From the sequence record MT682711.1: a DNA stretch of 64,000 nt; one strand, written 5' to 3'. Both the position numbers and the translations under genes were made by a program. This document shows, piece after piece, positions 366 to 22,932 of this stretch. The first letter of the stretch is position 1. Each line of letters starts with the position of its first letter. The notes below the pieces were generated by a model. The model did no database searches. It saw only the letters and a program-made list of their open reading frames with translations, and was not told where the DNA came from. The DNA is from Escherichia phage vB_EcoM_FB.

Positions 366-1649
366 ATGGCAAAGATTAACGAATTACTGCGCGAGTCAAC
401 AACTACTTCCAGCAACTCATTGGGTCGCCCTAATCTTGTTGCTTTGACCCGTGCTACAACCAAATTGATTTACCGTGATATTATCGCCGAACAACGTACT
501 AGCCAGCCTATTGCTGCACTGTATGGTGTCAAATATCTTACCCCTGATAATGAATTTAGTTTCCAGACAGGTGCCTCTTATGGTGGTGAAGTTGGTTCTA
601 AAGACCGTGAAACTATCCCAGAACTCACAGATAAGGCCCAGGCGATTGCTCAGGGTGAATATTTCAAGTACCAGAATGTGGTTTATAAGGCTCTTAAAGC
701 AAGCCCACTCGCGTCCACTAGCGCCACAGAATTGGCTGATGCTCTTCAAGAAGGTTTAGTGTCATTAACATGTCGTCTGGTTCCTGATGCTGCCCATACC
801 ACTAAATTTGAAGCGAGTGATGTAGAAATCTCTGATGCTGTATTCCAGGTTAATAAATGGAATGCTCCGGTTAAGACCCGTAAATTGAAGACGGCTTTGA
901 CTGTAGAATTAGCGCAGGATATGGAATCAAATGGCTTTGACGCGCCGGCGTTCTTAGAAGACCTCTTGGCTACAGTAATGGCAGATGAAATTAATAAAGA
1001 CGTTCTGCAATCTCTAATAACCGTATCCAAACGTTATAAAGTTACTGGTGTATCTGATAACGGCATCATCGATTTGTCTTATGACAGTGCTCCTGAATCT
1101 GCACGTAAACTTTATGAACTCGTTTGTGAGATGAATTCTGAAATCCAGAAAACTACTTCTTATTCTGGCACGTTTGTTGTGGCTTCAAGTCGTGTGGCTG
1201 CAATGCTTGCAGGTTCTGGCTGGTTAAAACATAAACCCGAAGATAATAATTGGCTTCCGGAAACTGCATACGGATATTTGTTGAATGGTCTGCCTCTGTT
1301 TTGTGACGTTAACAGTCCATTAGATTATGTTACCGTTGGTGTTAAAGAGAATTACGGCGGTAATGAAGTTGTCGGTTCTATTTTCTACGCTCCCTATACC
1401 GAAGGCTTAGATTTAGATGACCAAGAACACGTCGGTGCTTATAAGGTTATTGTTGACCCGGATTCATTACAACCTTCTATTTCTCTGATGGTTCGTTATG
1501 CACTATCAGCTAACCCGTACACCGTGGCTAAAGACGATAAAGAAGCTCGTGTTATCGATGCAACCAATATGGATTTAATGGCTGGACAGAGCAATATGTC
1601 TTATCTGGTTGGCGTTAAACTTCCGGCAATTATTTACGAGGCTGATTAA
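366..1649 (+). CDS. 24: head vertex protein gp24
   Basis: 427 aa; N-terminus MAKINELLRESTTT and the RKLKT-LTVELAQD block match recalled T4 gp24/gp23 fold; AAGGAAAG SD. Confidence 0.9.
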   Translation: MAKINELLRESTTTSSNSLGRPNLVALTRATTKLIYRDIIAEQRTSQPIAALYGVKYLTPDNEFSFQTGASYGGEVGSKDRETIPELTDKAQAIAQGEYFKYQNVVYKALKASPLASTSATELADALQEGLVSLTCRLVPDAAHTTKFEASDVEISDAVFQVNKWNAPVKTRKLKTALTVELAQDMESNGFDAPAFLEDLLATVMADEINKDVLQSLITVSKRYKVTGVSDNGIIDLSYDSAPESARKLYELVCEMNSEIQKTTSYSGTFVVASSRVAAMLAGSGWLKHKPEDNNWLPETAYGYLLNGLPLFCDVNSPLDYVTVGVKENYGGNEVVGSIFYAPYTEGLDLDDQEHVGAYKVIVDPDSLQPSISLMVRYALSANPYTVAKDDKEARVIDATNMDLMAGQSNMSYLVGVKLPAIIYEAD

Positions 1650-2955: not shown

Positions 2956-3963
2956 TTATTTGGATACTAGTTCAACCCATACATGTCTTAATGTTTCTTT
3001 TACGCACTCAACGAGCTGCTTTTTAACTTCAACGGGATTTTCCGCATCAGTTAATTCCAATTCTTCACGGGCGGCTTCTTCAAGGATATCCTGGACTGTC
3101 AAGCCCATCACCTTTCCGAAATCCTTCGGCGATACTTCGCCAATCTTACTGATGACATTGTTAATGCGGTTAACAGTCACATAATCGGTGAATTGCCACA
3201 TCAAATCCATATCGTCTTGGGACAATACCACTGCAACTTTAATAGGCTTATCAGACTTTTTCTTCTCGCTGAATTTAGAGTTCTTACATTTAATCGCCAC
3301 ACGATTTCCGTTTGGAAGCCAGGTAGGAACATCAGGTTTCAATACAAAGCCTTCAGCCGTGAATACCTTACCTTCTACCTTAGGAATAAAATCGGTTGAG
3401 TTTGCAATAGTTAAGCCTGCGTTATCCACTGCAAAATTATAATCAGGAACAACTGAATCAAAATCATTAGGAAGTTTAATAAGGTCTTCAAAGCTACCAG
3501 TGGCCAGACATGGAGCTACCTTAAACTTATGGATAATACAGAAGGCTTCCATCAATGTATCGGTTAGAACAGATTCTGAGCCATCTTCTTTAGTAACTCG
3601 GATATCGAACACATAAAAGTCTTTATCGCCGTAGTCCACATTCTTCTGGATGCCTGTCCCAGCGAATTCGCCATAAATCTGGTATGACTGATAATTAATC
3701 GATTCAATTAGATGTTGAACTGATTTAATAGAATCAGCGTAGTTCTTAAGTACAATTTCATAACCATAGAAATCTTCAGCAGGGAGGATAGGGCCAGTGC
3801 GCTTGGCGCATGTGACTGCGTCACGTTCTATGATTAAACTAAAGTTGGTTCCATGAATCTTCTCACGTGCTACCCATTCACCACCAGTCAAACCGTTAGT
3901 ACGGAGTTTTTCGATAAACTTACTGTTGTAGTGGTTTTCGAGACTGCTATATTTCTTGAACAT
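2956..3963 (-). CDS. rnlB: RNA ligase 2
   Basis: 335 aa; [20 protein letters not shown] and [10 protein letters not shown] (KxHGxN adenylation motif) as in T4 Rnl2. Confidence 0.95.
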
Positions 3964-4049
3964 AAATCACCATAATAAATATAATTAAATAGAAGAGCTA
4001 GTAGTCTTCTGTCACCAAGCCAAATGGGTTAACGGAAGGACCTAGACCC

Positions 4050-4075
4050 ATTATATCACACCTAAATTTAAAGCA
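4050..4075 (-). promoter_or_regulatory. putative middle promoter (MotA box TGCTTTA, 13 nt, TATAAT) for rnlB
   Basis: RC reads aTGCTTTAaatttaggtgtgaTATAAT. Confidence 0.4.
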
Positions 4076-4077
4076 TA

Positions 4078-4287
4078 TTACTTTGAACTAGAACGCGCTT
4101 TGCGCCGAACCTTGTTGTTCAATCTTTTACGATAAACAACCTTTTCTTTCGCTTTAAATTTGGCCTTGGCTTGTTCTACATCAACCCATGCTTTGGCCAT
4201 GTCCTTAGCGGTCCCGCCCATTTTTTTAGCAATTTCTATAAAATTCAACCCAGATTCGTGTAAAAAATGTACTTTAACCTTATCCAT
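4078..4287 (-). CDS. hypothetical small basic protein (24.x position)
   Basis: start re-set to ATG at 4287 (MDKVKVHF...), downstream of the promoter -10; lysine/arginine-rich C-terminus. Confidence 0.5.
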   Translation of the reverse strand: MDKVKVHFLHESGLNFIEIAKKMGGTAKDMAKAWVDVEQAKAKFKAKEKVVYRKRLNNKVRRKARSSSK

Positions 4288-4316
4288 AACAATTCTCTCG
4301 TTGAGTTGGTAAACCC

Positions 4317-4347
4317 ATCTTAACATAGAATTTTTAACTTGTAAACA
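4317..4347 (-). promoter_or_regulatory. early-type promoter (GTTTAC ... TAAGAT)
   Basis: -35 GTTTAC and -10 TAAGAT on the minus strand upstream of ATG 4287. Confidence 0.4.
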
Positions 4348-4370
4348 GGAATTTTGTACTTTAATGCAAA

Positions 4371-4388
4371 ATGGGCCTTGCGGCCCAT
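4371..4388. terminator. hairpin downstream of hoc
   Basis: ATGGGCC-ttgc-GGCCCAT perfect 7 bp stem. Confidence 0.5.
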
Positions 4389-4390
4389 TA

Positions 4391-5239
4391 TTAATAAATG
4401 TAATCGTATATAATACCAGCTTCTAAAGCGGTGCGATGAATAATTCGACCGTTACGAGATTCTTGTACATCAACCTCTGAATAGTCGGTAATCATTTTTT
4501 GAAGTGTATATCGGTGCAAATAATACGGGCTATCCGGGTCATCTGTTTTCCAGTCTTTGCCTTCAAGAGTCATTTTCTGGATTTCATCCATAACCCACCA
4601 ACCAACCCAAATATATGCTGAATTACGAACAGGGAGTGGATGAACGTAAGGTAATTCGCCATCCGGAACCGGTGCGACTTTAGCCGTGACTGTTACATTA
4701 CCGGTTTTTGTGACAGTCGCCGGGTTATAATCAGTCGCCGAAACCGCAACAGAAACTTCAATAACCTGTGAACCTTCAGTGCTTGTATCGATTGCTAGAG
4801 TATCCGTGGTGCCAACTACAGGAGAACCGTCTTTCTTCCAAGAATAGGCAAAAGTAGCACCAGCAGGAGCGCCGACCACATCCGCTTTAAAAGAAGCTGG
4901 AGTGCCTTCCGGAACATTAATCGAAGCTGGGGTTAATGTCACAGAAACACCGGAAATGGTTTTATTCTGGATAGTTAAAGTTGTTTCGGCTTCAGCTGTT
5001 TCTGGTTCGCCGTCCGCCGGTGTAGTTGTTGCAACAACTTTAATAGTCTTGCTGCCTGCCGGGCCAACAGCAACATAATCCATTGCAGCAGTCACAGAAG
5101 ATTGAGGAACGCCATCAACGGTCCAGACAAATGATTCGGTACCTTCAGCTGCAGCACCGGAACCGGTCGCAGTGAAATTGGTTGTTGCTCCAATAACGGC
5201 CGTAGCCGCCAAAGGAGCCATATCTACGGTATAAGCCAT
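4391..5239 (-). CDS. hoc: Hoc outer capsid protein (Ig-like repeats plus capsid-binding C-terminus)
   Basis: 282 aa; C-terminal GELPYVHPLP...WVMDEIQKMT...YYLHRYTLQKM as recalled for T4 Hoc; Thr/Val-rich Ig-like repeats. Confidence 0.85.
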   Translation of the reverse strand: MAYTVDMAPLAATAVIGATTNFTATGSGAAAEGTESFVWTVDGVPQSSVTAAMDYVAVGPAGSKTIKVVATTTPADGEPETAEAETTLTIQNKTISGVSVTLTPASINVPEGTPASFKADVVGAPAGATFAYSWKKDGSPVVGTTDTLAIDTSTEGSQVIEVSVAVSATDYNPATVTKTGNVTVTAKVAPVPDGELPYVHPLPVRNSAYIWVGWWVMDEIQKMTLEGKDWKTDDPDSPYYLHRYTLQKMITDYSEVDVQESRNGRIIHRTALEAGIIYDYIY

Positions 5240-5248
5240 AATAAACCC

Positions 5249-5920
5249 TTATTTTAAAGTGACAAAAGATGAGTTACGAGTTTCACGTACTAATACTGAA
5301 CCATTACGATTAATGTAATAAATCAGACTAAATAATGTTTGGTGGGCAGAAGGATGTTGGAAAGCAGTTGGACGTTCTTTCCAATCCGGAGTCTCAGAAA
5401 TCCATTGGTAAATCCACCAAGGAACGGTGCAATAACCTGGGTTCTTACCGATAAGCAAAAGATTAGGACTGAAGTTTTCAGGTAAAGAGAATACAGGTTT
5501 TTCAGATTCAACAACCTTGGCTATAGCCCCTTTGAATTTCTCTTCGTCAAATGGAACATCCTCTTCGATAATCTCTACCTTAGGAAGTTCGGCTACCTCA
5601 ACGACTTCTACTGCAGCCTCAGGGGCATCGAACAACAGGGTGGCTTCTTCTTTAGCTGGTTCAGCACCATCAACAAATTCGTTAGCACCTGTAAGTTCGT
5701 CGGCAGCATCAATCAAATCAGAAATGGACAACCCTTCGGTTTCTGGAAGTGGTTCGTCAGCCAAGGCTTTAAAGCCTTCAGAGATATCGATAATCAAATT
5801 ATCAAACGAACGGGTTTTCTTAAGTTTTAAACCGAACTGTTCGCCGTATTCGATTAACTTAGCTTTAGCTTCTTTTTTATCTTCGAGTGCACGAAGCTCT
5901 TCAATATATTGAGTATCCAT
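5249..5920 (-). CDS. inh: Inh, inhibitor of prohead protease
   Basis: 223 aa; position between hoc and uvsW; acidic middle region; recalled T4 Inh similarity. Confidence 0.75.
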   Translation of the reverse strand: MDTQYIEELRALEDKKEAKAKLIEYGEQFGLKLKKTRSFDNLIIDISEGFKALADEPLPETEGLSISDLIDAADELTGANEFVDGAEPAKEEATLLFDAPEAAVEVVEVAELPKVEIIEEDVPFDEEKFKGAIAKVVESEKPVFSLPENFSPNLLLIGKNPGYCTVPWWIYQWISETPDWKERPTAFQHPSAHQTLFSLIYYINRNGSVLVRETRNSSFVTLK

Positions 5921-5939
5921 AATTAGTCTCTTGTTGGTG

Positions 5940-5947
5940 TATAAATA
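5940..5947 (+). promoter_or_regulatory. late promoter TATAAATA for uvsW
   Basis: exact TATAAATA 29 nt before ATG 5976. Confidence 0.55.
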
Positions 5948-5953
5948 TAACTA

Positions 5954-5961
5954 TATTTATA
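5954..5961 (-). promoter_or_regulatory. late promoter (TATAAATA on minus strand) for inh-hoc
   Basis: plus strand TATTTATA; divergent from the uvsW late promoter 7 nt away. Confidence 0.5.
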
Positions 5962-5975
5962 ACTGAGAATTACTT

Positions 5976-7472
5976 ATGCAAATTCAAGTACATTTTGATA
6001 ATTTTAGTCATGTCCGTATTGAATGCGATGAATCTACATTCTACGAACTCAGAGACTATTTTAGCTTTGAAGCTGATGGATATAAATTCAACCCTAAATT
6101 TCGTTATGGCCAATGGGACGGACGTATTCGCCTTCTGGATTACAACCGTAAACTTCCTTATGGATTGGTCCCTCAAATTAAAAAGTTCGCTGAACAATTT
6201 GAATACTCTCTGTGGATTGACCCACGTATTCTTGAACAGGAAGATATTTCTCGTGAAGATTTTGATTCATGGGTGGCTTCTCAAGAAATTTATTCAGGGT
6301 CTACCAAGATTGAGCCTCATTGGTATCAGAATGAAGCCGTATACAACGGCCTGACAAAACGTCGCGCAATTCTGAATTTACCTACATCTGCAGGTAAATC
6401 ATTAATCCAGGCACTCCTGAGTCGATATTACGTTGAGAACTATGAAGGTAAAATCCTCATCTTAGTTCCTACTACTGCACTTGTCGACCAGATGATTAAC
6501 GACTTCATCGATTATCGTCTGTTCCCTAAAGCCGCAATGCTTGGTATTCGTTCAGGTACTGCTCGTGATTCCGATGCAATGATTTATGTTTCAACTTATC
6601 AAACCGCTATCAAGCAACCTAAAGAATGGTTTGCTCAGTTCGGTATGTTTATGAACGACGAATGCCATTTGGCTACAGGTAAATCTATTTCTACTATCAT
6701 CGAAGGCCTAACCAACTGTATGTTTAAATTCGGTTTGTCGGGTTCTTTAAAAGATGGTAAAGCTAATTTAATGCAATATATGGGCCTGTTTGGTGATGTG
6801 TTTAAGCCAGTATCCACCTCCCAATTAATGGAAGAAGGACAGGTTACTGACCTTAAAATCAACAGTATTTTCCTTCGATACCCTGATGAATTCACCGTTA
6901 AGATGAAAGGTAAAGATTACCAATCAGAAATTAAAGTCATTACTAAGGCTACCCGTCGTAATAAATGGGTTGCTAATTTAGCTGTTAAGCTCGCTAAGAA
7001 AGAAGAGAACGTATTCTTGATGTTTAAAAACATCGAGCACGGTAAAACTCTTTTTGAAATGGTCAAAGAGCAGCATAAAGAAGTTTATTACGTATCAGGC
7101 GAAGTTAATACAGAAACTCGTAATGCTCTTAAGTTAATGGCGGAAAACGGTAAGGGTATTATTGTTGTGGCAAGTTATGGGGTATTTTCTACAGGTATTT
7201 CTGTTAAGAATCTCCATCACGTAGTATTTGCCCATCCTGTAAAATCTAAAATTATTGTGCTGCAAACCATCGGTCGTGTACTTCGTAAACATGCATCCAA
7301 GACCACCGCGCAGGTTTGGGATATTATAGACGACATGGGCGTTAAGCCTAAATCAGCAAATGCCAAAAAGAAGTATGTTCATTTGAATTATGCATTAAAA
7401 CATGCCTTAGAACGTATTCAACGTTATGCTGACGAAAAATTTAATTACGTAATGAAACAGGTGGATTTATGA
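5976..7472 (+). CDS. uvsW: UvsW RNA-DNA/DNA helicase
   Basis: 498 aa; LPTSAGKS Walker A, DECH box; N-terminus VHFDNFSHVRIECDESTF as in T4 UvsW. Confidence 0.95.
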   Translation: MQIQVHFDNFSHVRIECDESTFYELRDYFSFEADGYKFNPKFRYGQWDGRIRLLDYNRKLPYGLVPQIKKFAEQFEYSLWIDPRILEQEDISREDFDSWVASQEIYSGSTKIEPHWYQNEAVYNGLTKRRAILNLPTSAGKSLIQALLSRYYVENYEGKILILVPTTALVDQMINDFIDYRLFPKAAMLGIRSGTARDSDAMIYVSTYQTAIKQPKEWFAQFGMFMNDECHLATGKSISTIIEGLTNCMFKFGLSGSLKDGKANLMQYMGLFGDVFKPVSTSQLMEEGQVTDLKINSIFLRYPDEFTVKMKGKDYQSEIKVITKATRRNKWVANLAVKLAKKEENVFLMFKNIEHGKTLFEMVKEQHKEVYYVSGEVNTETRNALKLMAENGKGIIVVASYGVFSTGISVKNLHHVVFAHPVKSKIIVLQTIGRVLRKHASKTTAQVWDIIDDMGVKPKSANAKKKYVHLNYALKHALERIQRYADEKFNYVMKQVDL

Positions 7473-7696
7473 AGTCCTTTAAAGAAGTTATCTATGAAGC
7501 CTCTATCGAGAGCTTCATGTCTAAAATTAGTTCTTGTCAAACCATGGACGGTTTGGAGGAATTGGAGAAGTATTACAAAACCCGAAGTAAAGAAGCCGAA
7601 CTTCGTGATTCGGATGATATCAGTGTCCGTGATGCCCTAGCAGGTAAACGAACTGAATTAGAATCTATGGATGATGAAGAAGAGGAAGATTTCTAA
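7469..7696 (+). CDS. uvsW.1: UvsW.1 small acidic protein
   Basis: 75 aa; ATGA overlap with uvsW stop; acidic C-terminus DDEEEEDF. Confidence 0.75.
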   Translation: MKSFKEVIYEASIESFMSKISSCQTMDGLEELEKYYKTRSKEAELRDSDDISVRDALAGKRTELESMDDEEEEDF

Positions 7697-7704
7697 ACAA
7701 AAAA

Positions 7705-7726
7705 GGCCCAACCTTTCGGAAGGGCC
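7705..7726. terminator. bidirectional hairpin between uvsW.1 (+) and the uvsY-side genes (-)
   Basis: GGCCCaacc-tttc-ggaaGGGCC, imperfect stem, A-run upstream. Confidence 0.5.
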
Positions 7727-7755
7727 AATAACCATAAATGGCTATACACACTAGA

Positions 7756-7923
7756 CTAAAGTAGTAATTGGGTTTCGTTCAGCTGTTCTTCAGTGTTTTC
7801 CGTAACCGGCAAGCTTTGAACGTAATTATAGCATGAGCCCGGATGAACAGGACCTTTTTCTGTTTCAACAACCAATGCAGCATCGATTGGAGTTTTACAG
7901 ACAACGCAAATCTTATCTGACAT
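7756..7923 (-). CDS. small Cys-containing protein (uvsY.-2-like), 55 aa
   Basis: MSDKICVVCKTPIDAALVVETEKGPVHPGSCYNY...; below the ORF-track cutoff; AGGAGA SD. Confidence 0.6.
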   Translation of the reverse strand: MSDKICVVCKTPIDAALVVETEKGPVHPGSCYNYVQSLPVTENTEEQLNETQLLL

Positions 7924-7951
7924 GATTGTCTCCTTAGTTTATCTTACATAT

Positions 7952-8620
7952 CTATTTATTAACTAAATTCTTTTCAAATGTTTTAACCATATAGGCCACA
8001 TCTAAATCAGGAAATCCGTTCTCAACTATTATGTGTCGAAATTTCCTTCTTTTAGGCATTCCTTCCTTTATCCAAAGTTCATGAATTTCCTTTTCAAATT
8101 CCCATAATTTACTTCTCATTGAAGGCCTAGGCTGAGAATGTTTACCTATATGAGCTTCATTAGCCTCTTTAGTACGTTTTTTACCCGACTTAGCTAACGA
8201 CATAGCCTTTTTAGCTTCTTCTGTATGAGAATATGGATTTCTTTTATGGCCATCACTTATGGCTTTTTTGGTTAATTCAGACCTTGGGATGCCTCTTATT
8301 TTTGATGCGCCTTTTTCAACAGATTCAGGGGATTTGGATGTACAACTACCTCCTTCACCACCTGGCTTCATATTCATACAGCGAATACCTTTACCAAACT
8401 TATCCCAGGCCTCTTCTATCAAAAGCTCTTCGAATTCATAAGCAAGTTTTTCAGTATCGAAAAAGGTTCTATCGATTATTTCCATTCGGTACTTTAATCT
8501 TTTTGCATAATAGATGTAATTACCTGACCCTACATACTTATCAGATATTTTATCAGAAGAATGCTTGCCAAAATACAGCCTAGTTCCGTTAGGCGAGTAT
8601 ACTAAAGTTTGGTAACACAT
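7952..8620 (-). CDS. free-standing GIY-YIG-type homing endonuclease with NUMOD3-like repeats
   Basis: LVYSPNGTRLYFGKHSS...YVGSG fits GIY/YIG spacing; three S-x-E-x-K-x-S/G helix repeats; ATG at 8620 chosen (track start 8650 is TTG). Confidence 0.6.
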   Translation of the reverse strand: MCYQTLVYSPNGTRLYFGKHSSDKISDKYVGSGNYIYYAKRLKYRMEIIDRTFFDTEKLAYEFEELLIEEAWDKFGKGIRCMNMKPGGEGGSCTSKSPESVEKGASKIRGIPRSELTKKAISDGHKRNPYSHTEEAKKAMSLAKSGKKRTKEANEAHIGKHSQPRPSMRSKLWEFEKEIHELWIKEGMPKRRKFRHIIVENGFPDLDVAYMVKTFEKNLVNK

Positions 8621-15406: not shown

Positions 15407-16347
15407 TGTATACTTTACAAGAATTTCAGAATCAGGCAATTAATATTGACCTACAAAGGAATAACCTGTTTAGTGTGGTATTTGCCACAGTTCCTTCTTC
15501 TAAATCTCAGACGCTCCTCGACCAGTTCGGTGGAGCTTTATTTAACAATATCCCATTGAATAGCGATTTGTTTGGTATTACACAAGGAGAGTTGACCCAA
15601 GGTGTTACGACATTAGTGACAGCGGGCACTCAGAAGTTGATTCGTAAGTCAGGCATAAGTAAATATTTGATTGGAGCTATGTCATCCAGGGTTGTGCAGA
15701 GCTTACTAGGAGAGTTTGAAGTAGGTACATATCTGATGGATTTTTTCAATATGGCCTATCCTACGGCAGGTCTTTTAGTCCACGCCGTTAAAATCCCGGA
15801 TAATACTTTGAACTATGAAATGGATTTGAACCACAACTCACCTAACATCAAAATTACCGGAAGAGAATATTCTCCATTAGTATTAAGCTTCCGTATGGAT
15901 TCTGAAGCTGCTAACTACCGTGCTTTTAATGATTGGGTCAATAGTGTTCAAGACCCTATTACACAATTAAGAGCATTACCGGAGGATGTTGAAGCTGACA
16001 TTCAAGTCAACCTTCATTCCCGTAATGGATTACCACATACGGTAGTAATGCTTAATGGTTGCGTTCCAATGAGCGTATCTTCCCCGGAATTATCTTACGA
16101 CGGTGATAACCAAATTGCTTCATTTGATGTTACATTTGCTTATAGAAGTGTACAGACTGGTGCAGTTGGCAAACAAGCTGCTTATGAATGGTTGGAAGAT
16201 AAAGTCCTTAAAGGCGTGGCGGGTATAAGTGAGAGCAATTCCCTGAGTTCTTCAGTGGCCAAATTAAGTAGACTTTCAGGAGCTTCTAGTGGATTAACAG
16301 GATTAGTTAATACATTCGGCGGGCGTGCTATTAATAATGGAATATAG
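15406..16347 (+). CDS. 54: baseplate-tail tube initiator gp54
   Basis: 313 aa; TAATG overlap with gene 48. Confidence 0.85.
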   Translation: MYTLQEFQNQAINIDLQRNNLFSVVFATVPSSKSQTLLDQFGGALFNNIPLNSDLFGITQGELTQGVTTLVTAGTQKLIRKSGISKYLIGAMSSRVVQSLLGEFEVGTYLMDFFNMAYPTAGLLVHAVKIPDNTLNYEMDLNHNSPNIKITGREYSPLVLSFRMDSEAANYRAFNDWVNSVQDPITQLRALPEDVEADIQVNLHSRNGLPHTVVMLNGCVPMSVSSPELSYDGDNQIASFDVTFAYRSVQTGAVGKQAAYEWLEDKVLKGVAGISESNSLSSSVAKLSRLSGASSGLTGLVNTFGGRAINNGI

Positions 16348-16366
16348 AGGTTGCTATAACAAAAAA

Positions 16367-16384
16367 GGAGAGCGTACGCTCTCC
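16367..16384. terminator. bidirectional terminator between gene 54 (+) and the alt block (-)
   Basis: GGAGAGCG-ta-CGCTCTCC perfect palindrome flanked by A6 and T3. Confidence 0.7.
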
Positions 16385-16393
16385 TTTAGGGGT

Positions 16394-16684
16394 TTATTTA
16401 CGGAACGAAATGAAACCTGCTGCAGTCATTAGTGGTTGCTTTTTAACAAACACCGTAACTGAAATAGGAGCTTCAGATTCGAGCTGTCCTGTCACTACAC
16501 CATTAAAGATATTTTCAGTTTGTTCCGGCTGAGAAAAGTTCTCAACAGGACGGATATCAAATTGCTTATCTTCACCGAAAACTCGACGCAATTCATTACC
16601 AACTGCACTGTCAAACTCTTCGGAAGCAGGGATAACGTTTTCAACTACCAGTTCTTGACCATTAAAACGGAATGCAGATTTCAT
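16394..16684 (-). CDS. hypothetical protein (alt.-1 position)
   Basis: 96 aa; GAGGAGAACATT SD; own early promoter. Confidence 0.55.
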   Translation of the reverse strand: MKSAFRFNGQELVVENVIPASEEFDSAVGNELRRVFGEDKQFDIRPVENFSQPEQTENIFNGVVTGQLESEAPISVTVFVKKQPLMTAAGFISFRK

Positions 16685-16712
16685 AATGTTCTCCTCATGT
16701 TTGTGTAAGGTA

Positions 16713-16742
16713 ATAGTAACACCATCCTTGGCGTTTGTAAAC
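16713..16742 (-). promoter_or_regulatory. early promoter (GTTTACA-N17-TACTAT)
   Basis: 19-nt core ATAGTAACACCATCCTTGG shared with the copy at 61996..62024. Confidence 0.5.
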
Positions 16743-18793
16743 TACCCTTGTACAAATTTATATTGGAGAGCGTCGATATCTATACAAGAAGCTAACAAGC
16801 CAAGACCTCTGTCTGAGTTCTTTTTCTTCTCATTAGAAACAAATGAATCAAAAGAAAGCTCACCACCATCTTTATAGACAACGAGTTCTCCTGTTTCCAT
16901 TAGGGCATCACCGTCGTATACTACAGCTTCATTAAGTTCATCTGCAGTCATTACTTCGGCTTGAATAAACTTATTGTTAGAACGAGTAGTCCCGTTGTTA
17001 TATGAGGCATCTGTAATTTTATTGATTTTAACCATCAACCCTCTAGGAAGAATTACTTCCATTTCGTTAGAAGGGGCTAGGTCTCCACCAGGTAAAACGA
17101 CATTTACTTTATTAGCACCAGTAATGGCCCAACCGATACCTACTAAGGTATCTTTAACTGAATATACCAAGCCTTCATCAGATTTATCTAAAGCAACATC
17201 TCGACGCTTTTCATCAGGTAAAACACCAACACCAGAATCGGTCATCCATGTACCAAAAATATTTGGATAAAGTGATGTTGATACAAAGTTCCTGAAATAG
17301 AATACTTTGTTTTTAACCATAGCCAGGTAAATATCAGGAATCATTCGTTGAGAACGATAAAGCGTGATACCTTCCGGAAGTTGTTCACCATTTTCAAAAG
17401 CAGAATCTAAGTTATTGATAGCTTTTTCTATCTCTTCATTAGTCAAAATACTGGTTCTTGTATTAGGGTCGCGGATTCCTAAAAGAACATTATTCATATC
17501 TTCGTAACCGGAGCCAACGTATTCACGAATACCACGCTTCTGTGCTGGTGTATAACGAGATACGTCTTTATTTTCTACAATAGAATGTAATTGCCAACCC
17601 GCGGTAAGAGCATAAACACGCAGTTCGCGCTGAATAATTTTGGTCTTTATAGCATTCCAAGAATTTTCGGCTAACTCTATGGCTTCGTGATAACCTAAGT
17701 GAGAATGCCGGGCCATTAGTTTTTGAAGCCAAGGGCCTTTATATTCTTCGATGACATCATCAACCACTGAAGCATAATTTTCTAGAGCTTTTACTGAAGT
17801 CACATTTAATCCATGTAATTTCTCAAAAGCTCTCATTTTTATGTCGGTATTAATTTCTTCCATTTTATCTTCTGGAATAAGAAGGTTGTCTTTAAACGAC
17901 ATACCGCCGGTATTAGCACTAATGGTATTTTCTAAAGCCAAGAAAGAATTAGAAATAACCTTTATTTCATTTGCTTCCGGCATTAAAGGACCTGTAGCAG
18001 GTTTATTCAATTCGACAGCATTAGACTCAAATTTCTTAAACATTGGAGTTTCGAAACGAGATGATTCTAAGGATTGCGACATAGCAATAGCACGACGTGA
18101 AATCTTAGTCTTGGTAATGACAGCCTTATCAGTACGTTTCTCTTCAACTTTAGCTATACTTGCCGAGACGGCTTCGGCCTTACTTACGGCCTGGCCAGTT
18201 TCCTTAGAAACATAAACTTCGCCAACTTTAGACTCAACCTTAGTATAAAGCTCGGCATCAATTTCAGGCATACCCTTAATATCTTCAATATTAGTACCAC
18301 GACGTACTAAAAGAACATAGGTATGTTTTCCGGTGAATTGGTACATGGCATCAACAACTTTAAACTTACCACCAGTACGAGCCATAGCTAAACGAGCTAA
18401 TACACGCTGAACAGTAGGACCCTTACCTTTCATTTTCTTGGTAGGGAACCGGAAAAGAACTGCATCCATTTTAAGTTTGTTTACTTGTTCGTATACAGTA
18501 TCAAAAATGGTATTCAGCGTACCAAGTGGGTCAGAACCTAACCCACCTTTCAACTCGGCTGGGCTACCCTTAGCAGACAAACTCATCAAAATAACATGAA
18601 CATATTTGTCTCCGGGCTTAACCATTTTAATAGCGTCTCCTTGAGACGCATAAGATACCATACGAGCAACCAGGTTATCATTACCTGGCGCTTTAATAGA
18701 GAAAATCTGTGGGATACCGGAACCTGGTTTAAGATTTATTACTGGATAGTTTTTATCGGAATCACTATCAAAAACCTCGTTTAAATTTTCCAT
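16742..18793 (-). CDS. alt: Alt-family ADP-ribosyltransferase (copy 1)
   Basis: 683 aa; R-S-E ART-like motifs YRSQ, FRNFVSTSL, EMEV; position between 54 and 30. Confidence 0.8.
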   Translation of the reverse strand: MENLNEVFDSDSDKNYPVINLKPGSGIPQIFSIKAPGNDNLVARMVSYASQGDAIKMVKPGDKYVHVILMSLSAKGSPAELKGGLGSDPLGTLNTIFDTVYEQVNKLKMDAVLFRFPTKKMKGKGPTVQRVLARLAMARTGGKFKVVDAMYQFTGKHTYVLLVRRGTNIEDIKGMPEIDAELYTKVESKVGEVYVSKETGQAVSKAEAVSASIAKVEEKRTDKAVITKTKISRRAIAMSQSLESSRFETPMFKKFESNAVELNKPATGPLMPEANEIKVISNSFLALENTISANTGGMSFKDNLLIPEDKMEEINTDIKMRAFEKLHGLNVTSVKALENYASVVDDVIEEYKGPWLQKLMARHSHLGYHEAIELAENSWNAIKTKIIQRELRVYALTAGWQLHSIVENKDVSRYTPAQKRGIREYVGSGYEDMNNVLLGIRDPNTRTSILTNEEIEKAINNLDSAFENGEQLPEGITLYRSQRMIPDIYLAMVKNKVFYFRNFVSTSLYPNIFGTWMTDSGVGVLPDEKRRDVALDKSDEGLVYSVKDTLVGIGWAITGANKVNVVLPGGDLAPSNEMEVILPRGLMVKINKITDASYNNGTTRSNNKFIQAEVMTADELNEAVVYDGDALMETGELVVYKDGGELSFDSFVSNEKKKNSDRGLGLLASCIDIDALQYKFVQG

Positions 18794-18796
18794 TAT

Positions 18797-20881
18797 TTAC
18801 CCTTGGATGAATTTTTCTGGGATGTCATAGAGGTCTATGCATGAAGCCAAAAGAGGCAGTACATCAAACCGTGTAGATTTAACAAATGAATCAAAAGATA
18901 CGGGGCTTTCGGAAGTATCGAAGTCATCTTGATATACGACCAACTCGCCGGTTTCCATTAGTACGTCACCATCATATACCACAGATTCTTGAAGCTCATC
19001 TGTTGTCATAACTTCAGCTTGGATGAGTTTTGTATTACTAGATGTTGTTCCATCATTATTAGAAGCATCTGTTATTTTATTAACTTTGACCATTAATCCA
19101 CGCGGTAGAATAACTTCGGCTTCAGTTGCTATTCCGAGATTTCCTGGATATACGACATTAACTTTATGAGCCCCATCAATGGCCCATCCTATTTGAACCT
19201 TAACGTAATCGGGATTTTCCTTATACGCTCTTATTTCATTAGGATTAATAGTTATTCCTTCTTCATTTTTATCAACTGTCAATTCGTTGCGAACTTCCGG
19301 TTCTAAAAGACCAATACCAGCGTGCGTAACACCAAAACGTCCGAAAATTATAGGAGTTAAAGAAGTAGATACAAAATTTCTAAAATAAAACACTTTATTT
19401 TTAACTAGTGCTTCGTATATAGGAGCAGTCATACTCTGGGCACGATAAACTGTAATGCCTTCCGGTATACGGTCACCATTTTCAAAAGCTGAATCTAAAT
19501 TATTTACAGCGGATTCGATATCTTTTTCGCTCATAACCTCATAGTTCTGAGGATTATAACGTCCTAAAAGAAGATTATTTATGTCTGTATATCCTGAACC
19601 ACAATATTCTCTGATGCCGCGCTTTTGTGATGGGGTATATTTAGAGCCCTCACGAGCAATAGTAATATCGACCATAATACCACCACCTACACCAGCAAAA
19701 CTATACACACGTTTTTTAATGAACTTAGTCTTGGCTGCTTTCCACTTGGACTCGGTTAATTCATTCCAGACGTCGTCAGGTTGGCCTTTACGAGTTCTGT
19801 TATGGATAGCCAGCCACTCGCCTTTATATTCTTCGAAAATGGTATTAATGGTAGAGGCATATTTTTCCAGGGCTTTAACAGATGTCAAAGGTTCATTTTT
19901 GATAGCTGTAAGAATTTTCTCTTTAATTTTCTCTTGGATTTCACCAATACCGTGAAGTGGGAACAATTTATAGTCGTAATGCAATTCTTCAGCAGTGCCT
20001 TCAGCTACTATATTAGCAACCTTATTTTTAGCCGCAGGAGAATTGTTATTAGTGACCATTTCCTGGGCCTCAGGGATTAATGGAACTGTTGCCGGTTTAT
20101 TAAAATCTACTGCAGTAGCTTCATATTTCTTAAACAGCTCACTTTCATTACGATAAGATTCTAACGATTGACTTGCCGCAATAGCACGTCGAGAAATCTT
20201 AGTCTTGGTTATAACCATTTTATCAGTGCGACGTTCTTCAACCTTAGCAATACTACCGGCGATAGCAGTTTCTTTAGTAACCTGCACGCCTTCTTTTTTA
20301 GAAATATAAACTTCACCGACATCAGAATCTACCTTAGTATACAATTCAGCATTAATTCCAGGCATACCTTTGATATCTTCTATATCAGCTTGTTTACGAA
20401 CTACCAGGATGTAAGTATGTTTACCGGTAAATTGGTACATAGCCGGAACTACTTTAAAACGTCCACCTGTTTTCTGTGCTACCAAACGTTGGATAATCCG
20501 TTGAACGATAGGGCCTTGACCTTTCATTTTCTTAGTAGGGAAACGGAACATCACGGCATCCATACGAAGCTTTTTAACTTGGTCATAAACCACATCAAAA
20601 ATAGTATTAATCGCATCTACGGGAGTAGGGCCTAGGCCACCTTTAAGTTCGGCAGGCGAACCTTTAGCTGAAAGGCTCATAAGGATAACGTGGGCATATT
20701 TATCACCCATCTTAACCTGTTTAATAGCATCACCTTCAGAAGCGTAGGATACCATACGCGCCACTAATTGGGATTCTGCGTCACCAATCTTCCAAATCTG
20801 GGGTACTTTAAGTTTTGGGTTCAAGTTTACTGTAGGCAGTGTGCCTTCGGACTCAAACACTTCATTTAATTGTTCGGTCAT
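18797..20881 (-). CDS. Alt-family ADP-ribosyltransferase paralog (copy 2)
   Basis: 694 aa; same motifs (YRAQ, FRNFVSTSL, EAEV); full-length similarity to copy 1, divergent middle third. Confidence 0.8.
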   Translation of the reverse strand: MTEQLNEVFESEGTLPTVNLNPKLKVPQIWKIGDAESQLVARMVSYASEGDAIKQVKMGDKYAHVILMSLSAKGSPAELKGGLGPTPVDAINTIFDVVYDQVKKLRMDAVMFRFPTKKMKGQGPIVQRIIQRLVAQKTGGRFKVVPAMYQFTGKHTYILVVRKQADIEDIKGMPGINAELYTKVDSDVGEVYISKKEGVQVTKETAIAGSIAKVEERRTDKMVITKTKISRRAIAASQSLESYRNESELFKKYEATAVDFNKPATVPLIPEAQEMVTNNNSPAAKNKVANIVAEGTAEELHYDYKLFPLHGIGEIQEKIKEKILTAIKNEPLTSVKALEKYASTINTIFEEYKGEWLAIHNRTRKGQPDDVWNELTESKWKAAKTKFIKKRVYSFAGVGGGIMVDITIAREGSKYTPSQKRGIREYCGSGYTDINNLLLGRYNPQNYEVMSEKDIESAVNNLDSAFENGDRIPEGITVYRAQSMTAPIYEALVKNKVFYFRNFVSTSLTPIIFGRFGVTHAGIGLLEPEVRNELTVDKNEEGITINPNEIRAYKENPDYVKVQIGWAIDGAHKVNVVYPGNLGIATEAEVILPRGLMVKVNKITDASNNDGTTSSNTKLIQAEVMTTDELQESVVYDGDVLMETGELVVYQDDFDTSESPVSFDSFVKSTRFDVLPLLASCIDLYDIPEKFIQG

Positions 20882-20913
20882 AATAATTCCTCTTTAATAA
20901 CCTTATTTATGCC

Positions 20914-20931
20914 AGAAAAGGCCCGAAGGCC
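20914..20931. terminator. hairpin upstream of alt copy 2
   Basis: AAAGGCC-cgaa-GGCCTTT. Confidence 0.5.
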
Positions 20932-20935
20932 TTTA

Positions 20936-21118
20936 TTAAAGTACTAACAGCGTACGGTACACTTCAAATTTAGGACCCTTTTCATAGCGGTCGAAATTAT
21001 CTTTAAAATCAGCGAACGCGATTTCATTTTCAAATTCAAGGACAATTTGGGACACTGCAGTGGAGACATCCCCACCTTCTTTATATCCAATAACCACGGT
21101 TTCTAAATAAGCTTTCAT
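20936..21118 (-). CDS. hypothetical small protein (60 aa)
   Basis: start re-set to ATG 21118, one nt after the ligase stop. Confidence 0.45.
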   Translation of the reverse strand: MKAYLETVVIGYKEGGDVSTAVSQIVLEFENEIAFADFKDNFDRYEKGPKFEVYRTLLVL

Positions 21119-21119
21119 A

Positions 21120-22643
21120 TTATAGACCAGTTTGAGACCAATCACCGAATACATCTTCAAATGTATCAGCTTCTGTTTTATCGAAACGCCAACCTTTAAT
21201 GATTGGAAGGAAAATACCTACAGTATCAGTACGTCCTTTAGAATGAACCCAACCATTACATTCACAGTCAGCAATACGTCCAATCAACTTACCTTCACGA
21301 GCTTGTTTCATAAGAAGTTCACGGTCTAAATCAGGACGGTCTTCCAATGGAATCAATACCTTTTTACCTGATTTATCTTTCTTATGGGTAGTATCTTTAA
21401 AGCCTGAACCACAGTCACTTGTAATTCGACGACAACGTGATACTAACTCAACACCACCTAGTTTGTTAGGGTCCTTCGAGTGTTCATAATAACCTACCAC
21501 TTCTAAAGCGATATCGATTACTTCTTTGAACTTGATAAGATTCTTAGAACGGCGGTTTTCCCAGTAGGAGTCCATGTTCTTAAGGATAATGCCTTCCAGA
21601 CCTTGGTCGACATATTTCTTATAAACGACTTTAGCTTCTTCAAGATTATTAACCCACTGGTTTTCGATAGCTTCAACACGCGTTGTGCCATGCAATACGA
21701 CATTATGAGCCACCATAAGTTCTAAGGCTGTAAAGCGTACATCATACTTATCGCCTTTAATTTTGCCTTCAGAATACACGACATCCAGTGGGACATAATC
21801 CCATGCCTGTAATACCATACCAGCGGCTTCAGTAGCCGAAATAGTTCCTTGAAGAGCCTTATTAGCCAATCCATTTGACGTAGAACGATCGGCGACAGTT
21901 TGGAATTCCTTAGCCTTACTTAATTCAGGAAGTTCCTCGTCAAACATACTAAACAAATCATTAGATGCTTTAGGTTCTACCTTAGGAGTATGGTAAACTA
22001 ATTCGCCATCAATCATAACGCCATTAGGATGGCGTTGTCGAGCTTCTTCGGTCATGGCCATTAATTCAGCCGCCAAAAGATTAAGCCCTTGATATTCGTT
22101 ACCACCACGAGTAAGGAATGTCACACCATCGTTACGAACTTCGGCAAAACAACGAGCACCATCAGCTTTTAATTGAGCAAACGCTGGCCATTTAATATTT
22201 TTCTTAATCAAAGCTTCATCATAAGAACTCGCCAACATCTGCGGTTGTTCAGGGATTAAACCTTTCCAACCCTTGTTAGCAATAGAAATCGATGCACCAC
22301 ATTCAAGGTCGCGCATCATTACACGACGTAATACCTCGGCATCCGGGGCCTTAGCATCAGCAATGATTTGAGCCAGTTCTTCAATAGCCGCATTACCCGT
22401 AATCTTACGTGTGGCTAATGTGAATTCAGCGAAATCAAGAAGGTCTTCAAGAGTAATCATACCAAAGGATTGAGATGTAAATCCAGGTTCTGGCCACTTT
22501 TTAATACCGTAGTTCAGACGACGGGTATAAGCCATACGATAAACACGTTTCAGAAGCTCATTGTCCTTTTCACGAGCAATAATGGCTTCTTTAGCTTTAG
22601 TAGAATCAATAGCAGCAATTTCGTTTAAAATATCTAAAATCAT
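21120..22643 (-). CDS. 30: ATP-dependent DNA ligase gp30
   Basis: start re-set to ATG 22643 (MILDILNEIAA); KADGAR adenylation motif; GAGGTGATT SD. Confidence 0.95.
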   Translation of the reverse strand: MILDILNEIAAIDSTKAKEAIIAREKDNELLKRVYRMAYTRRLNYGIKKWPEPGFTSQSFGMITLEDLLDFAEFTLATRKITGNAAIEELAQIIADAKAPDAEVLRRVMMRDLECGASISIANKGWKGLIPEQPQMLASSYDEALIKKNIKWPAFAQLKADGARCFAEVRNDGVTFLTRGGNEYQGLNLLAAELMAMTEEARQRHPNGVMIDGELVYHTPKVEPKASNDLFSMFDEELPELSKAKEFQTVADRSTSNGLANKALQGTISATEAAGMVLQAWDYVPLDVVYSEGKIKGDKYDVRFTALELMVAHNVVLHGTTRVEAIENQWVNNLEEAKVVYKKYVDQGLEGIILKNMDSYWENRRSKNLIKFKEVIDIALEVVGYYEHSKDPNKLGGVELVSRCRRITSDCGSGFKDTTHKKDKSGKKVLIPLEDRPDLDRELLMKQAREGKLIGRIADCECNGWVHSKGRTDTVGIFLPIIKGWRFDKTEADTFEDVFGDWSQTGL

Positions 22644-22653
22644 AATCACCTCA

Positions 22654-22932
22654 TTAGTCATGGATTCTATTATAAGCCACATCAGCCAAAAGCAAGTCTA
22701 ATCGCTTATGATAAGAGAACACAAATCTCATTCGCCCATCAGATTTGAACTTGGACATAAAGTGGACATAAATGAATCCCTGTTCGACGCATTCGCGCCA
22801 AACAGGATGGTCTTTAGCCGGATTTACATCAAATGAGTAATCATGATTCACATGACGAATAAACTGGTTTACATGGCCATAATCCATTGTAGTGGTAGGA
22901 CCATAGTCTGAAATTGTATGAACTACAAACAT
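22654..22932 (-). CDS. hypothetical protein (30.1 position)
   Basis: start re-set to ATG 22932 with GAGGTTAAT SD. Confidence 0.5.
   Translation of the reverse strand: MFVVHTISDYGPTTTMDYGHVNQFIRHVNHDYSFDVNPAKDHPVWRECVEQGFIYVHFMSKFKSDGRMRFVFSYHKRLDLLLADVAYNRIHD

Follow-up and report, generated by a model that had tools for sequence, protein, structure and literature searches.

A stretch of 64,000 nucleotides (nt) of Escherichia phage vB_EcoM_FB (record MT682711.1), referred to here in its entirety as the window, contains a locus in the order gene 30, alt.1, alt genes, alt.-3 and gene 54. This is the canonical alt locus and the position expected of the Alt family, and here it holds two genes for Alt-type ADP-ribosyltransferases (ARTs) in tandem. 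The phage is a Dhakavirus, with 99.4–99.9% identity to vB_EcoM_IME540 by blastn. An initial annotation made from the sequence had placed two adjacent minus-strand open reading frames (ORFs) of 683 and 694 amino acids (aa) at this locus, and the ORF list gives exactly these. The upstream gene is called copy A and the downstream gene copy B; their coordinates, predicted domain layouts and surrounding elements are collected in Table 1.

Both ORFs encode full-length Alt-type ARTs, as the initial annotation proposed, and neither lacks any of the R-S-E catalytic residues. PF03496 (ADPrib_exo_Tox) matches the two copies with E values of 4e-29 and 4e-36 (102 and 125 bits, where the Pfam gathering cut-off is 23.4 bits), and these scores together with the predicted ART fold place both in the R-S-E clade. 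Both also align with the full length of the PHROG 802 family, described as "Alt-like RNA polymerase ADP-ribosyltransferase" (E = 1e-254 and 2e-263). The suggested alignment to T4 Alt shows two collinear full-length homologues, copy B with 59% identity over 691 columns (833 bits) and copy A with 47% over 700 columns (613 bits; BLASTP). The catalytic set is complete in copy A (R480, S505-T506-S507 and E587-A-E589) and in copy B (R480, S505-T506-S507 and E577-M-E579). In both, the second glutamate of E-x-E aligns with T4 Alt E577, an essential residue whose replacement in the E577A mutant leaves the enzyme inactive (PMC11404850). The motifs originally picked out are all present, i.e., LYRSQ/VYRAQ, FRNFVSTSL in both copies, NEMEV in copy B and TEAEV in copy A.

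Table 1. Features of the alt locus of vB_EcoM_FB (window positions unless given as residues)
Feature	Position	Strand	Description
Copy A (alta/alt orthologue)	18797..20881	-	694 aa; "beta" effector type; 5' member in transcription direction
Copy B (Bp7 alt' orthologue)	16742..18793	-	683 aa; "alpha" (T4-Alt-like) effector on Dhakavirus slot-2 N-module
Spacer ATA	18794..18796	-	3 nt between copy A stop and copy B start; junction reads TAA-ATA-ATG
Apparent exchanged effector cassette of copy B	16745..18135	-	From ~codon 220-240 (KISRRAIA-SQSLES linker) to stop
Copy A predicted layout, N-terminal part	residues 1-412		N-propeptide 1-7 (LNE-7); alpha/beta N-domain ~17-196; helical linker ~197-262; helical middle domain ~263-412
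Copy A predicted layout, C-terminal part	residues ~413-694		ART domain ~413-632; C-propeptide 633-694 after LQE-632
Copy B predicted layout, N-terminal part	residues 1-410		N-propeptide 1-6 (LNE-6); N-domain ~18-198; linker ~199-260; middle domain ~261-410
Copy B predicted layout, C-terminal part	residues ~411-683		ART domain ~411-622; C-propeptide 623-683 after LNE-622
alt.1 homologue	20936..21160	-	Upstream flank; from ORF list and annotations of relatives
alt.-3 homologue	16394..16684	-	96 aa; downstream flank; annotated alt.-3 in Bp7, JS10 and T4
Hairpin AAAGGCC-TTCG-GGCCTTT, then T	20917..20934	-	GC hairpin, terminator-like; directly after alt.1 stop; read from sequence
CATAAATA	20904..20911	-	Late-promoter-like; 1 mismatch from T4 consensus TATAAATA; 23 nt 5' of copy A start
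AAGAGGA	20888..20894	-	Shine-Dalgarno-like, for copy A; read from sequence
TTTACA-17 nt-TACTAT	16713..16741	-	Early-type promoter-like; right after copy B stop, ahead of alt.-3; consensus match only
Strong hairpin and T-run terminator	16364..16387	-	10-bp stem; between alt.-3 and convergent gene 54

AlphaFold2 models of the two copies (mean predicted local distance difference test scores of 79.3 and 76.6) have the same architecture, and the middle domains, whose structure prediction had been recommended, come out as all-helical in both. In these models the ART domains fold as the C3/VIP2/Vis type, the N-terminus is disordered, and the helical linker and the tail are of low confidence in both copies. 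A PDB sequence search with copy B returned no solved relative, and an N-module profile matched nothing in PDB at E values up to 10. Residues 1–260 of either copy have no Pfam match of any kind; when 12 N-modules and the middle domain alone were compared with Pfam, the N-modules at E values up to 10, there was only sub-threshold noise, and NCBIfam returned nothing. Neither copy has the N-terminal MuF or other head or portal domain of MuF-fused and polyvalent head-packaged ARTs; the T4-type context has been treated as an alternative to MuF fusion (PMC9503650). A second precomputed Pfam accession, PF26846, accompanies PF03496 on every Alt homologue (P0001–P0120) and is probably a newer Alt-specific domain model; the local Pfam-A did not return it for copy A, for copy B or for the N-terminal and middle portions of the two.

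The two copies resemble one another far beyond chance, since the pairwise alignment called for at the outset gives 735 bits and E = 0 (BLASTP), with 397 of 703 positions (56%) identical over the full length. Identity is uneven along the protein. In copy B residues, it is 56% over 1–60, 74% over 61–180, 70% over 181–260, 40% over 261–300 and 33% over 301–410, followed by 63% over 411–520, 49% over 521–570 (with a 10-aa indel), 77% over 571–640 and 51% over 641–683. The description of conserved ends and a divergent middle (residues 261–410) is thus roughly right, and there is a second variable patch, 521–570, inside the catalytic domain.

Segment-wise comparison of 13 Alt proteins indicates mosaic structure and no recent duplication. 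Copy A is 96–99% identical throughout to JS10 alta, WG01_200 and Bp7 alt. Copy B is 92–97% identical to JS10 altb over residues 1–180, 67% in the linker and 16–43% beyond, and its identity to T4 Alt is 34–38% over residues 1–180, 58% in the middle domain and 76–81% in the ART core. At the DNA level, sliding identity to JS10 falls from ~90% to ~40% between ~18135 and ~18075, in the linker, and stands at 96% past the stop codon. The copy B cassette as a block has 33–63% nt identity to the altb genes of JS10, IME08 and WG01, with flanks at ~90–96%. It occurs at 90% identity or more in only four phage records (tblastn), and the next best matches are T4-type Alt at 68–69%. The earlier description of copy B as a diverged second copy of copy A does not stand, given that its effector part is nearer to T4 Alt than to copy A (49–77% in the ART core).

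Across the relatives, effector parts sort into types that are labeled alpha (T4 Alt, WilhelmHis Alt and copy B), beta (copy A, JS10 alta and RB3 alt), gamma (RB3_194, Alt2, JS10 altb and WG01_199) and delta (WG01_201). The N-terminal modules cluster by phage lineage and slot instead. The types are found in many combinations: beta and alpha in the window and Bp7; beta and gamma in JS10; delta, beta and gamma in WG01; alpha and gamma in WilhelmHis; and a beta core with gamma in RB3. By sequence type, most Dhakaviruses carry a gamma (Alt2-type) core where copy B has alpha, and the beta plus alpha set of the window lineage appears to be rare.

The RB3 alt gene (4004–6097 of the excised RB3 locus) is a chimera in which the N-module and C-tail are 99% and 96% identical to T4 Alt and the ART core is 93–95% identical to copy A. 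Its synonymous divergence (dS) from copy A is 0.35–0.57 in the ART core and above 2 in the flanks. Because dS is unsaturated in the core and exceeds 2 in the flanks, the ART core alone seems to have been exchanged recently between genera. The protein cluster to which RB3 alt belongs (P0022) comprises 641 sequences. The same decoupling is found among 129 Alt proteins, where identity in the middle domain tracks that in the core (Spearman 0.81) much more closely than N-module identity does (0.47). In this set, 631 pairs share an N-module at 85% or more with a core below 70%, and 20 pairs have an N-module below 50% with a core at 85% or more. The comparisons point to Alt as a lineage- and slot-specific N-module of ~200 aa and a laterally moving, discrete middle-plus-ART core, joined by a conserved linker. 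Split and partial arrangements elsewhere provide further evidence that the N and ART halves are separable modules. The 44RR locus (2992–7860 of the excised region) has three genes, a 319-aa partial one and others of 639 and 642 aa, and the Acinetobacter phages ZZ1 and Henu6 have a full alt together with a "split" alt that encodes the N-module and the ART part in two genes.

T4 turns out to be the exception. The statement in the initial annotation that T4 has a single alt at this position is correct as to one intact gene and incomplete otherwise, as alt.-1 and alt.-2 are also present. In the T4 record itself, these are annotated as an old duplicate of the initial part of alt. When this region (3030–3470 of the excised NC_000866 locus) is aligned to RB3_194 (6085–8230 of the excised RB3 locus), its DNA matches the first ~350 nt of the uninterrupted RB3 gene at 94.8% identity, and the loss of 1 nt from an A-run splits the frame into alt.-1 and alt.-2. 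The alignment then jumps to the last ~20 nt of the RB3 gene and its downstream flank, at 97.6% identity, and the 9-nt CTAAAAAGT stands on both sides of the junction. Since the remnant matches both ends of the RB3 gene and the repeat flanks the gap, a deletion between short direct repeats has removed ~1.69 kb (~1691 nt) of an Alt2 gene from T4. A partial duplication of alt was therefore rejected as the origin of alt.-1/alt.-2 in favor of descent from a full second gene by deletion; RB3 and WilhelmHis have this gene intact. In the window, the T4 alt/alt.-1 junction has its counterpart between copy A and copy B, and the TAG TTTACA that follows the remnant has its counterpart at the end of copy B; this TAG-TTTACA is conserved in RB3 as well.

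The tandem pair itself is an already known, ordinary feature of T4-like phages, and the novelty implied by the initial annotation is refuted, because the pair has already been described in characterized T-even genomes. Megablast of window positions 16000–22000 against 50,697 phage records matched 649 of them, all T-even relatives, with Escherichia phage Bp7 as the best full-length match (94.8%). A tblastn search with copy A matched 1218 records at 1753 places; of 60 records sampled evenly, 27 had two or three places. The pair is annotated in Bp7 and, as alta/altb, in JS10 and IME08, and three alt genes are found in WG01, QL01, MX01, C6, AnYang and fDHCT2. Tequatrovirus RB3 has alt and a full-length 685-aa gene (RB3_194) labeled "alt.-2," and the BASEL Tequatrovirus WilhelmHis (Bas35) has genes annotated "Alt" and "Alt2." An effector part of the Alt2 type is found at 95% identity or more in 402 records, and an intact second alt is carried by about 400 phage records. 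In print, a full-length alt duplication was reported in 44RR and partial ones in RB49 and T4 (Nolan et al. 2006, PMC1524935), and Alt duplication was stated for Ac42, JS98 and Bp7 (Jin et al. 2014, PMC4177764). The IME08 paper says nothing about alt, and a literature search combining "Alt2" with ADP-ribosyltransferase and phage found no paper. With the pair annotated in the nearest relatives, present as Alt/Alt2 in BASEL, in print since 2006 and found in hundreds of genomes, it carries little weight as a discovery. Among T-evens, having two genes is common and probably the ancestral state, with the single gene of T4 derived.

The record of the nearest relative contains a pitfall. The IME540 genome (MT150133) is linearized inside copy B, which occupies positions 168795–170135 and 1–609 (record position 1 is window position 18185), and its copy B is consequently annotated as a truncated 446-aa "ADP-ribosylase." This fragment has been propagated to UniProt and BFVD as A0A6H1Z657 and is the top match in the viral structure library.

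The sequence around the pair suggests how it may be expressed. In T4, an identical hairpin upstream of alt is followed by an exact TATAAATA at the position corresponding to that of CATAAATA, and it is from this position that CATAAATA is assigned a putative late-promoter function; no exact TATAAATA was found upstream of either gene. Scans for sigma-70 promoters and terminators returned sites no more numerous than in shuffled sequence, and only the hairpin downstream of alt.-3 is convincing. Between copy A and copy B there is no promoter-like or terminator-like element, and AAGGG within the last codons of copy A is a candidate ribosome-binding site for copy B. Given the 3-nt spacer and this AAGGG, the two genes are likely to be co-transcribed, with coupled translation. 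The same TAA-NNN-ATG junction is found between T4 alt and alt.-1 (TAA-ATC-ATG). On the upstream side, the alt.1 ORF (TTG start, 74 aa) probably overstates the length of the gene, whose annotated homologues have 56–62 aa. The ORF of gene 30, the DNA ligase (21120–22682, 520 aa), begins in the overlap on the alt.1 side; the Bp7 and JS10 ligases have 507–513 aa, and the true start codon probably lies further downstream.

Packaging is known for T4 Alt, where ~40 molecules reside in the scaffolding core, are retained in the mature head and are injected into the host with the DNA (PMC9958956, PMC9026906). Mass spectrometry has located gp21 cleavage of T4 Alt at ITE-6 and LTE-619, the latter stripping 63 C-terminal residues (PMC5694885). 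Homologues of these sites are present in both window proteins, LNE-7 and LQE-632 in copy A and LNE-6 and LNE-622 in copy B, as expected for the family at the sequence level. An (L/I)-x-E motif is found at both sites in all 28 aligned homologues, and AlphaFold2 confidence falls exactly past the C-terminal site in both copies. Because the motifs are kept at both ends, the two copies look like substrates of one packaging and processing route.

Both copies are under purifying selection, and neither is decaying: the ORFs are uninterrupted, the catalytic sets are complete and the ratio of nonsynonymous to synonymous divergence (dN/dS) is low. Against close alleles, dN/dS is 0.00–0.17 in nearly all segments of both genes, including the ART core, with the copy A middle domain at the high end (0.10–0.13). 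The exception is the 43-codon C-tail of copy B compared with Bp7 alt', where the value of 0.52 comes from just four nonsynonymous and two synonymous changes.

Taken together, it is quite probable that the window encodes two functional paralogues of the T4 Alt family that are expressed late, packaged, processed by gp21 and injected, that are modular proteins and not recent duplicates, and that may act on overlapping but distinct targets. In the proposed sequence of events, copies A and B would be co-transcribed late from the T4-like promoter 5' of copy A, and each would be made as a precursor that enters the scaffolding core of the prohead. The gp21 prohead protease would then trim after (L/I)-x-E at residue 6 or 7 and at ~62 residues from the C-terminus. 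The mature enzymes, of ~615–625 aa, would be injected with the DNA and, as arginine-specific mono-ADP-ribosyltransferases, would modify host proteins.

Several points weigh against this account. A literature search yielded no experiment on either protein and no virion proteomics of any two-alt phage, and packaging, cleavage, injection, activity and targets are all carried over from T4 Alt. The gp21 gene lies outside the window. While CATAAATA is the only candidate near copy A, matches to TATAAATA with one mismatch are not enriched in the window, which makes the late-promoter assignment weak on its own. The putative role of the N-module as a packaging chassis is drawn from its lineage- and slot-specific evolution. 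Finally, the ART cores of the two copies are still 63–77% identical in places, which would fit largely redundant targets.

The question of targets turns on the parts that differ most. In C3- and iota-type toxins, the loop corresponding to the stretch before E-x-E helps select the substrate. In the Alt proteins, this loop is type specific and near-invariant within a type across genera, reading LGIATEAE in beta, LAPSNEME in alpha and SGFPSEAE or TEYSEEAE in gamma; the window has LGIATEAE in copy A and DLAPSNEME in copy B. The middle domain co-segregates with the ART core. By analogy with C3/iota-type ARTs, the helical middle domain and the stretch before E-x-E would be the likely specificity region. 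As both are type specific, distinct but overlapping host targets for the two copies are plausible, and we lean slightly toward them. Copy B is the closer analogue of T4 Alt, and copy A belongs to a type without a characterized member.

The strongest competing explanation is redundancy, in which both enzymes modify the same host proteins (e.g., Arg265 of RNA polymerase alpha) and the second gene raises or secures the dose. The shared catalytic residues and fold, and the high identity over much of the ART core, are compatible with this, and T4 thrives in the laboratory with one alt, which is nonessential (PMC9026906). However, the middle domains are only 33–40% identical, and the loop before E-x-E differs by type yet hardly varies within one. 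Each type is under purifying selection, and genomes combine different types, not two alike. Redundancy is therefore doubtful.

A recent, lineage-specific tandem duplication, with the second copy diverging toward a new function, might be expected from adjacent genes in the same orientation with 56% identity, and the N-modules of the two copies are ~69% alike, compared with 36–41% to that of T4. Yet copy B is nearer to T4 Alt than to copy A in the ART core (79% versus 64%) and in the middle domain (58% versus 35%). The pair is also spread over Dhakavirus, Tequatrovirus, Aeromonas phage 44RR and Acinetobacter phages, T4 keeps a remnant of the second copy, and shared constraint or gene conversion accounts better for the likeness between the N-modules of one genome. 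A recent in situ duplication was thus rejected as very improbable. Just as improbable is a decaying or catalytically dead copy, kept, for example, as a structural core protein; alt.-1/alt.-2 of T4 show that the second slot can decay, and Alt has been described both as an enzyme and as a core protein (PMC11404850), but the intact ORFs, the retained R, S-T-S and E-x-E motifs and the purifying selection on both copies speak against a pseudogene. An assembly artifact that falsely duplicated one gene has nothing in its favor beyond the tandem arrangement and can be dismissed, as the copies differ at 44% of residues and the arrangement recurs in many independently sequenced genomes.

In a broader interpretation of the two-paralogue account, the alt locus would be an array of two or three slots for exchangeable injected effectors on a delivery chassis, and T4 would be a deletion mutant without Alt2. 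The chassis, comprising the N-propeptide, an N-domain of ~190 aa that perhaps has a GNAT-like fold, the linker and the C-propeptide, would evolve with lineage and slot. Recombination at two points, the conserved linker and the C-terminal propeptide, would shuffle the cores, also between genera. We give this interpretation about an even chance of being right; if it is, T4, the model for all Alt biology, is without the Alt2 effector found in ~400 relatives. The modular architecture, the inter-genus exchange of ART cores, the exact T4 deletion and the conservation of both gp21 sites may go somewhat beyond the searchable literature, as an incremental advance. What is known of Alt function has been learned almost entirely from T4, which lost its second gene; natural T-even phages thus have a larger and more diverse set of injected ARTs than the T4 model suggests, and no target is known for any non-T4 Alt type. 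For loading foreign enzymes into T4-type capsids, the architecture suggests the linker near residue 230 and the C-terminal L-x-E as natural fusion points, and the natural chimeras offer a ready-made set for mapping substrate specificity.

Comparison with known systems places the pair among its relatives. The closest counterparts, in Bp7 (HQ829472, NC_019500) and IME540, show allelic differences only; Bp7 shares the genus, the locus and the gene pair annotated alt/alt', with copy A 98% identical to alt and copy B 95% to alt'. JS10, JS98, IME08, WG01, QL01 and MX01 share the locus, copy A (96–99%) and the N-module of copy B. In contrast, their altb genes carry from about codon 220–240 the effector of a 707-aa "gamma" protein that is 16–43% identical to copy B, and the WG01-type phages have an extra third gene upstream, the 631-aa "delta." The Tequatrovirus Alt2 genes of RB3 (RB3_194) and WilhelmHis/Bas35 are likewise full-length second genes directly 3' of alt, with the 3-nt junction, the domain layout and the motifs in common, but their effector is of the gamma type, with 35–39% ART-core identity to either window copy, and the window has no gamma-type gene.

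T4 Alt (NP_049811, P12726) shares with the window pair the locus, the upstream hairpin, the late-promoter position, the R-S-E residues and the positions of the gp21 sites. It differs in its N-module, at only 36–41% identity, and in being a single intact gene followed by the alt.-1/alt.-2 remnant. It alone has experimental data, with Arg265 of RNA polymerase alpha and Arg84 of MazF among at least 27 targets in all (PMC8120803). T4 ModA and ModB also belong to the phage R-S-E mono-ADP-ribosyltransferases and redirect host transcription and translation (PMC8120803); by description, not by alignment, they are set apart as proteins of ~200 aa that are expressed early and not packaged. The bacterial R-S-E toxins C3, VIP2, iota Ia, CDTa, Vis and Certhrax, specific for arginine or asparagine, resemble the Alt C-terminal domain in fold and in the R, S-T-S and E-x-E motifs at 15–22% identity but have no Alt N-terminal module, no middle domain and no gp21 propeptides.

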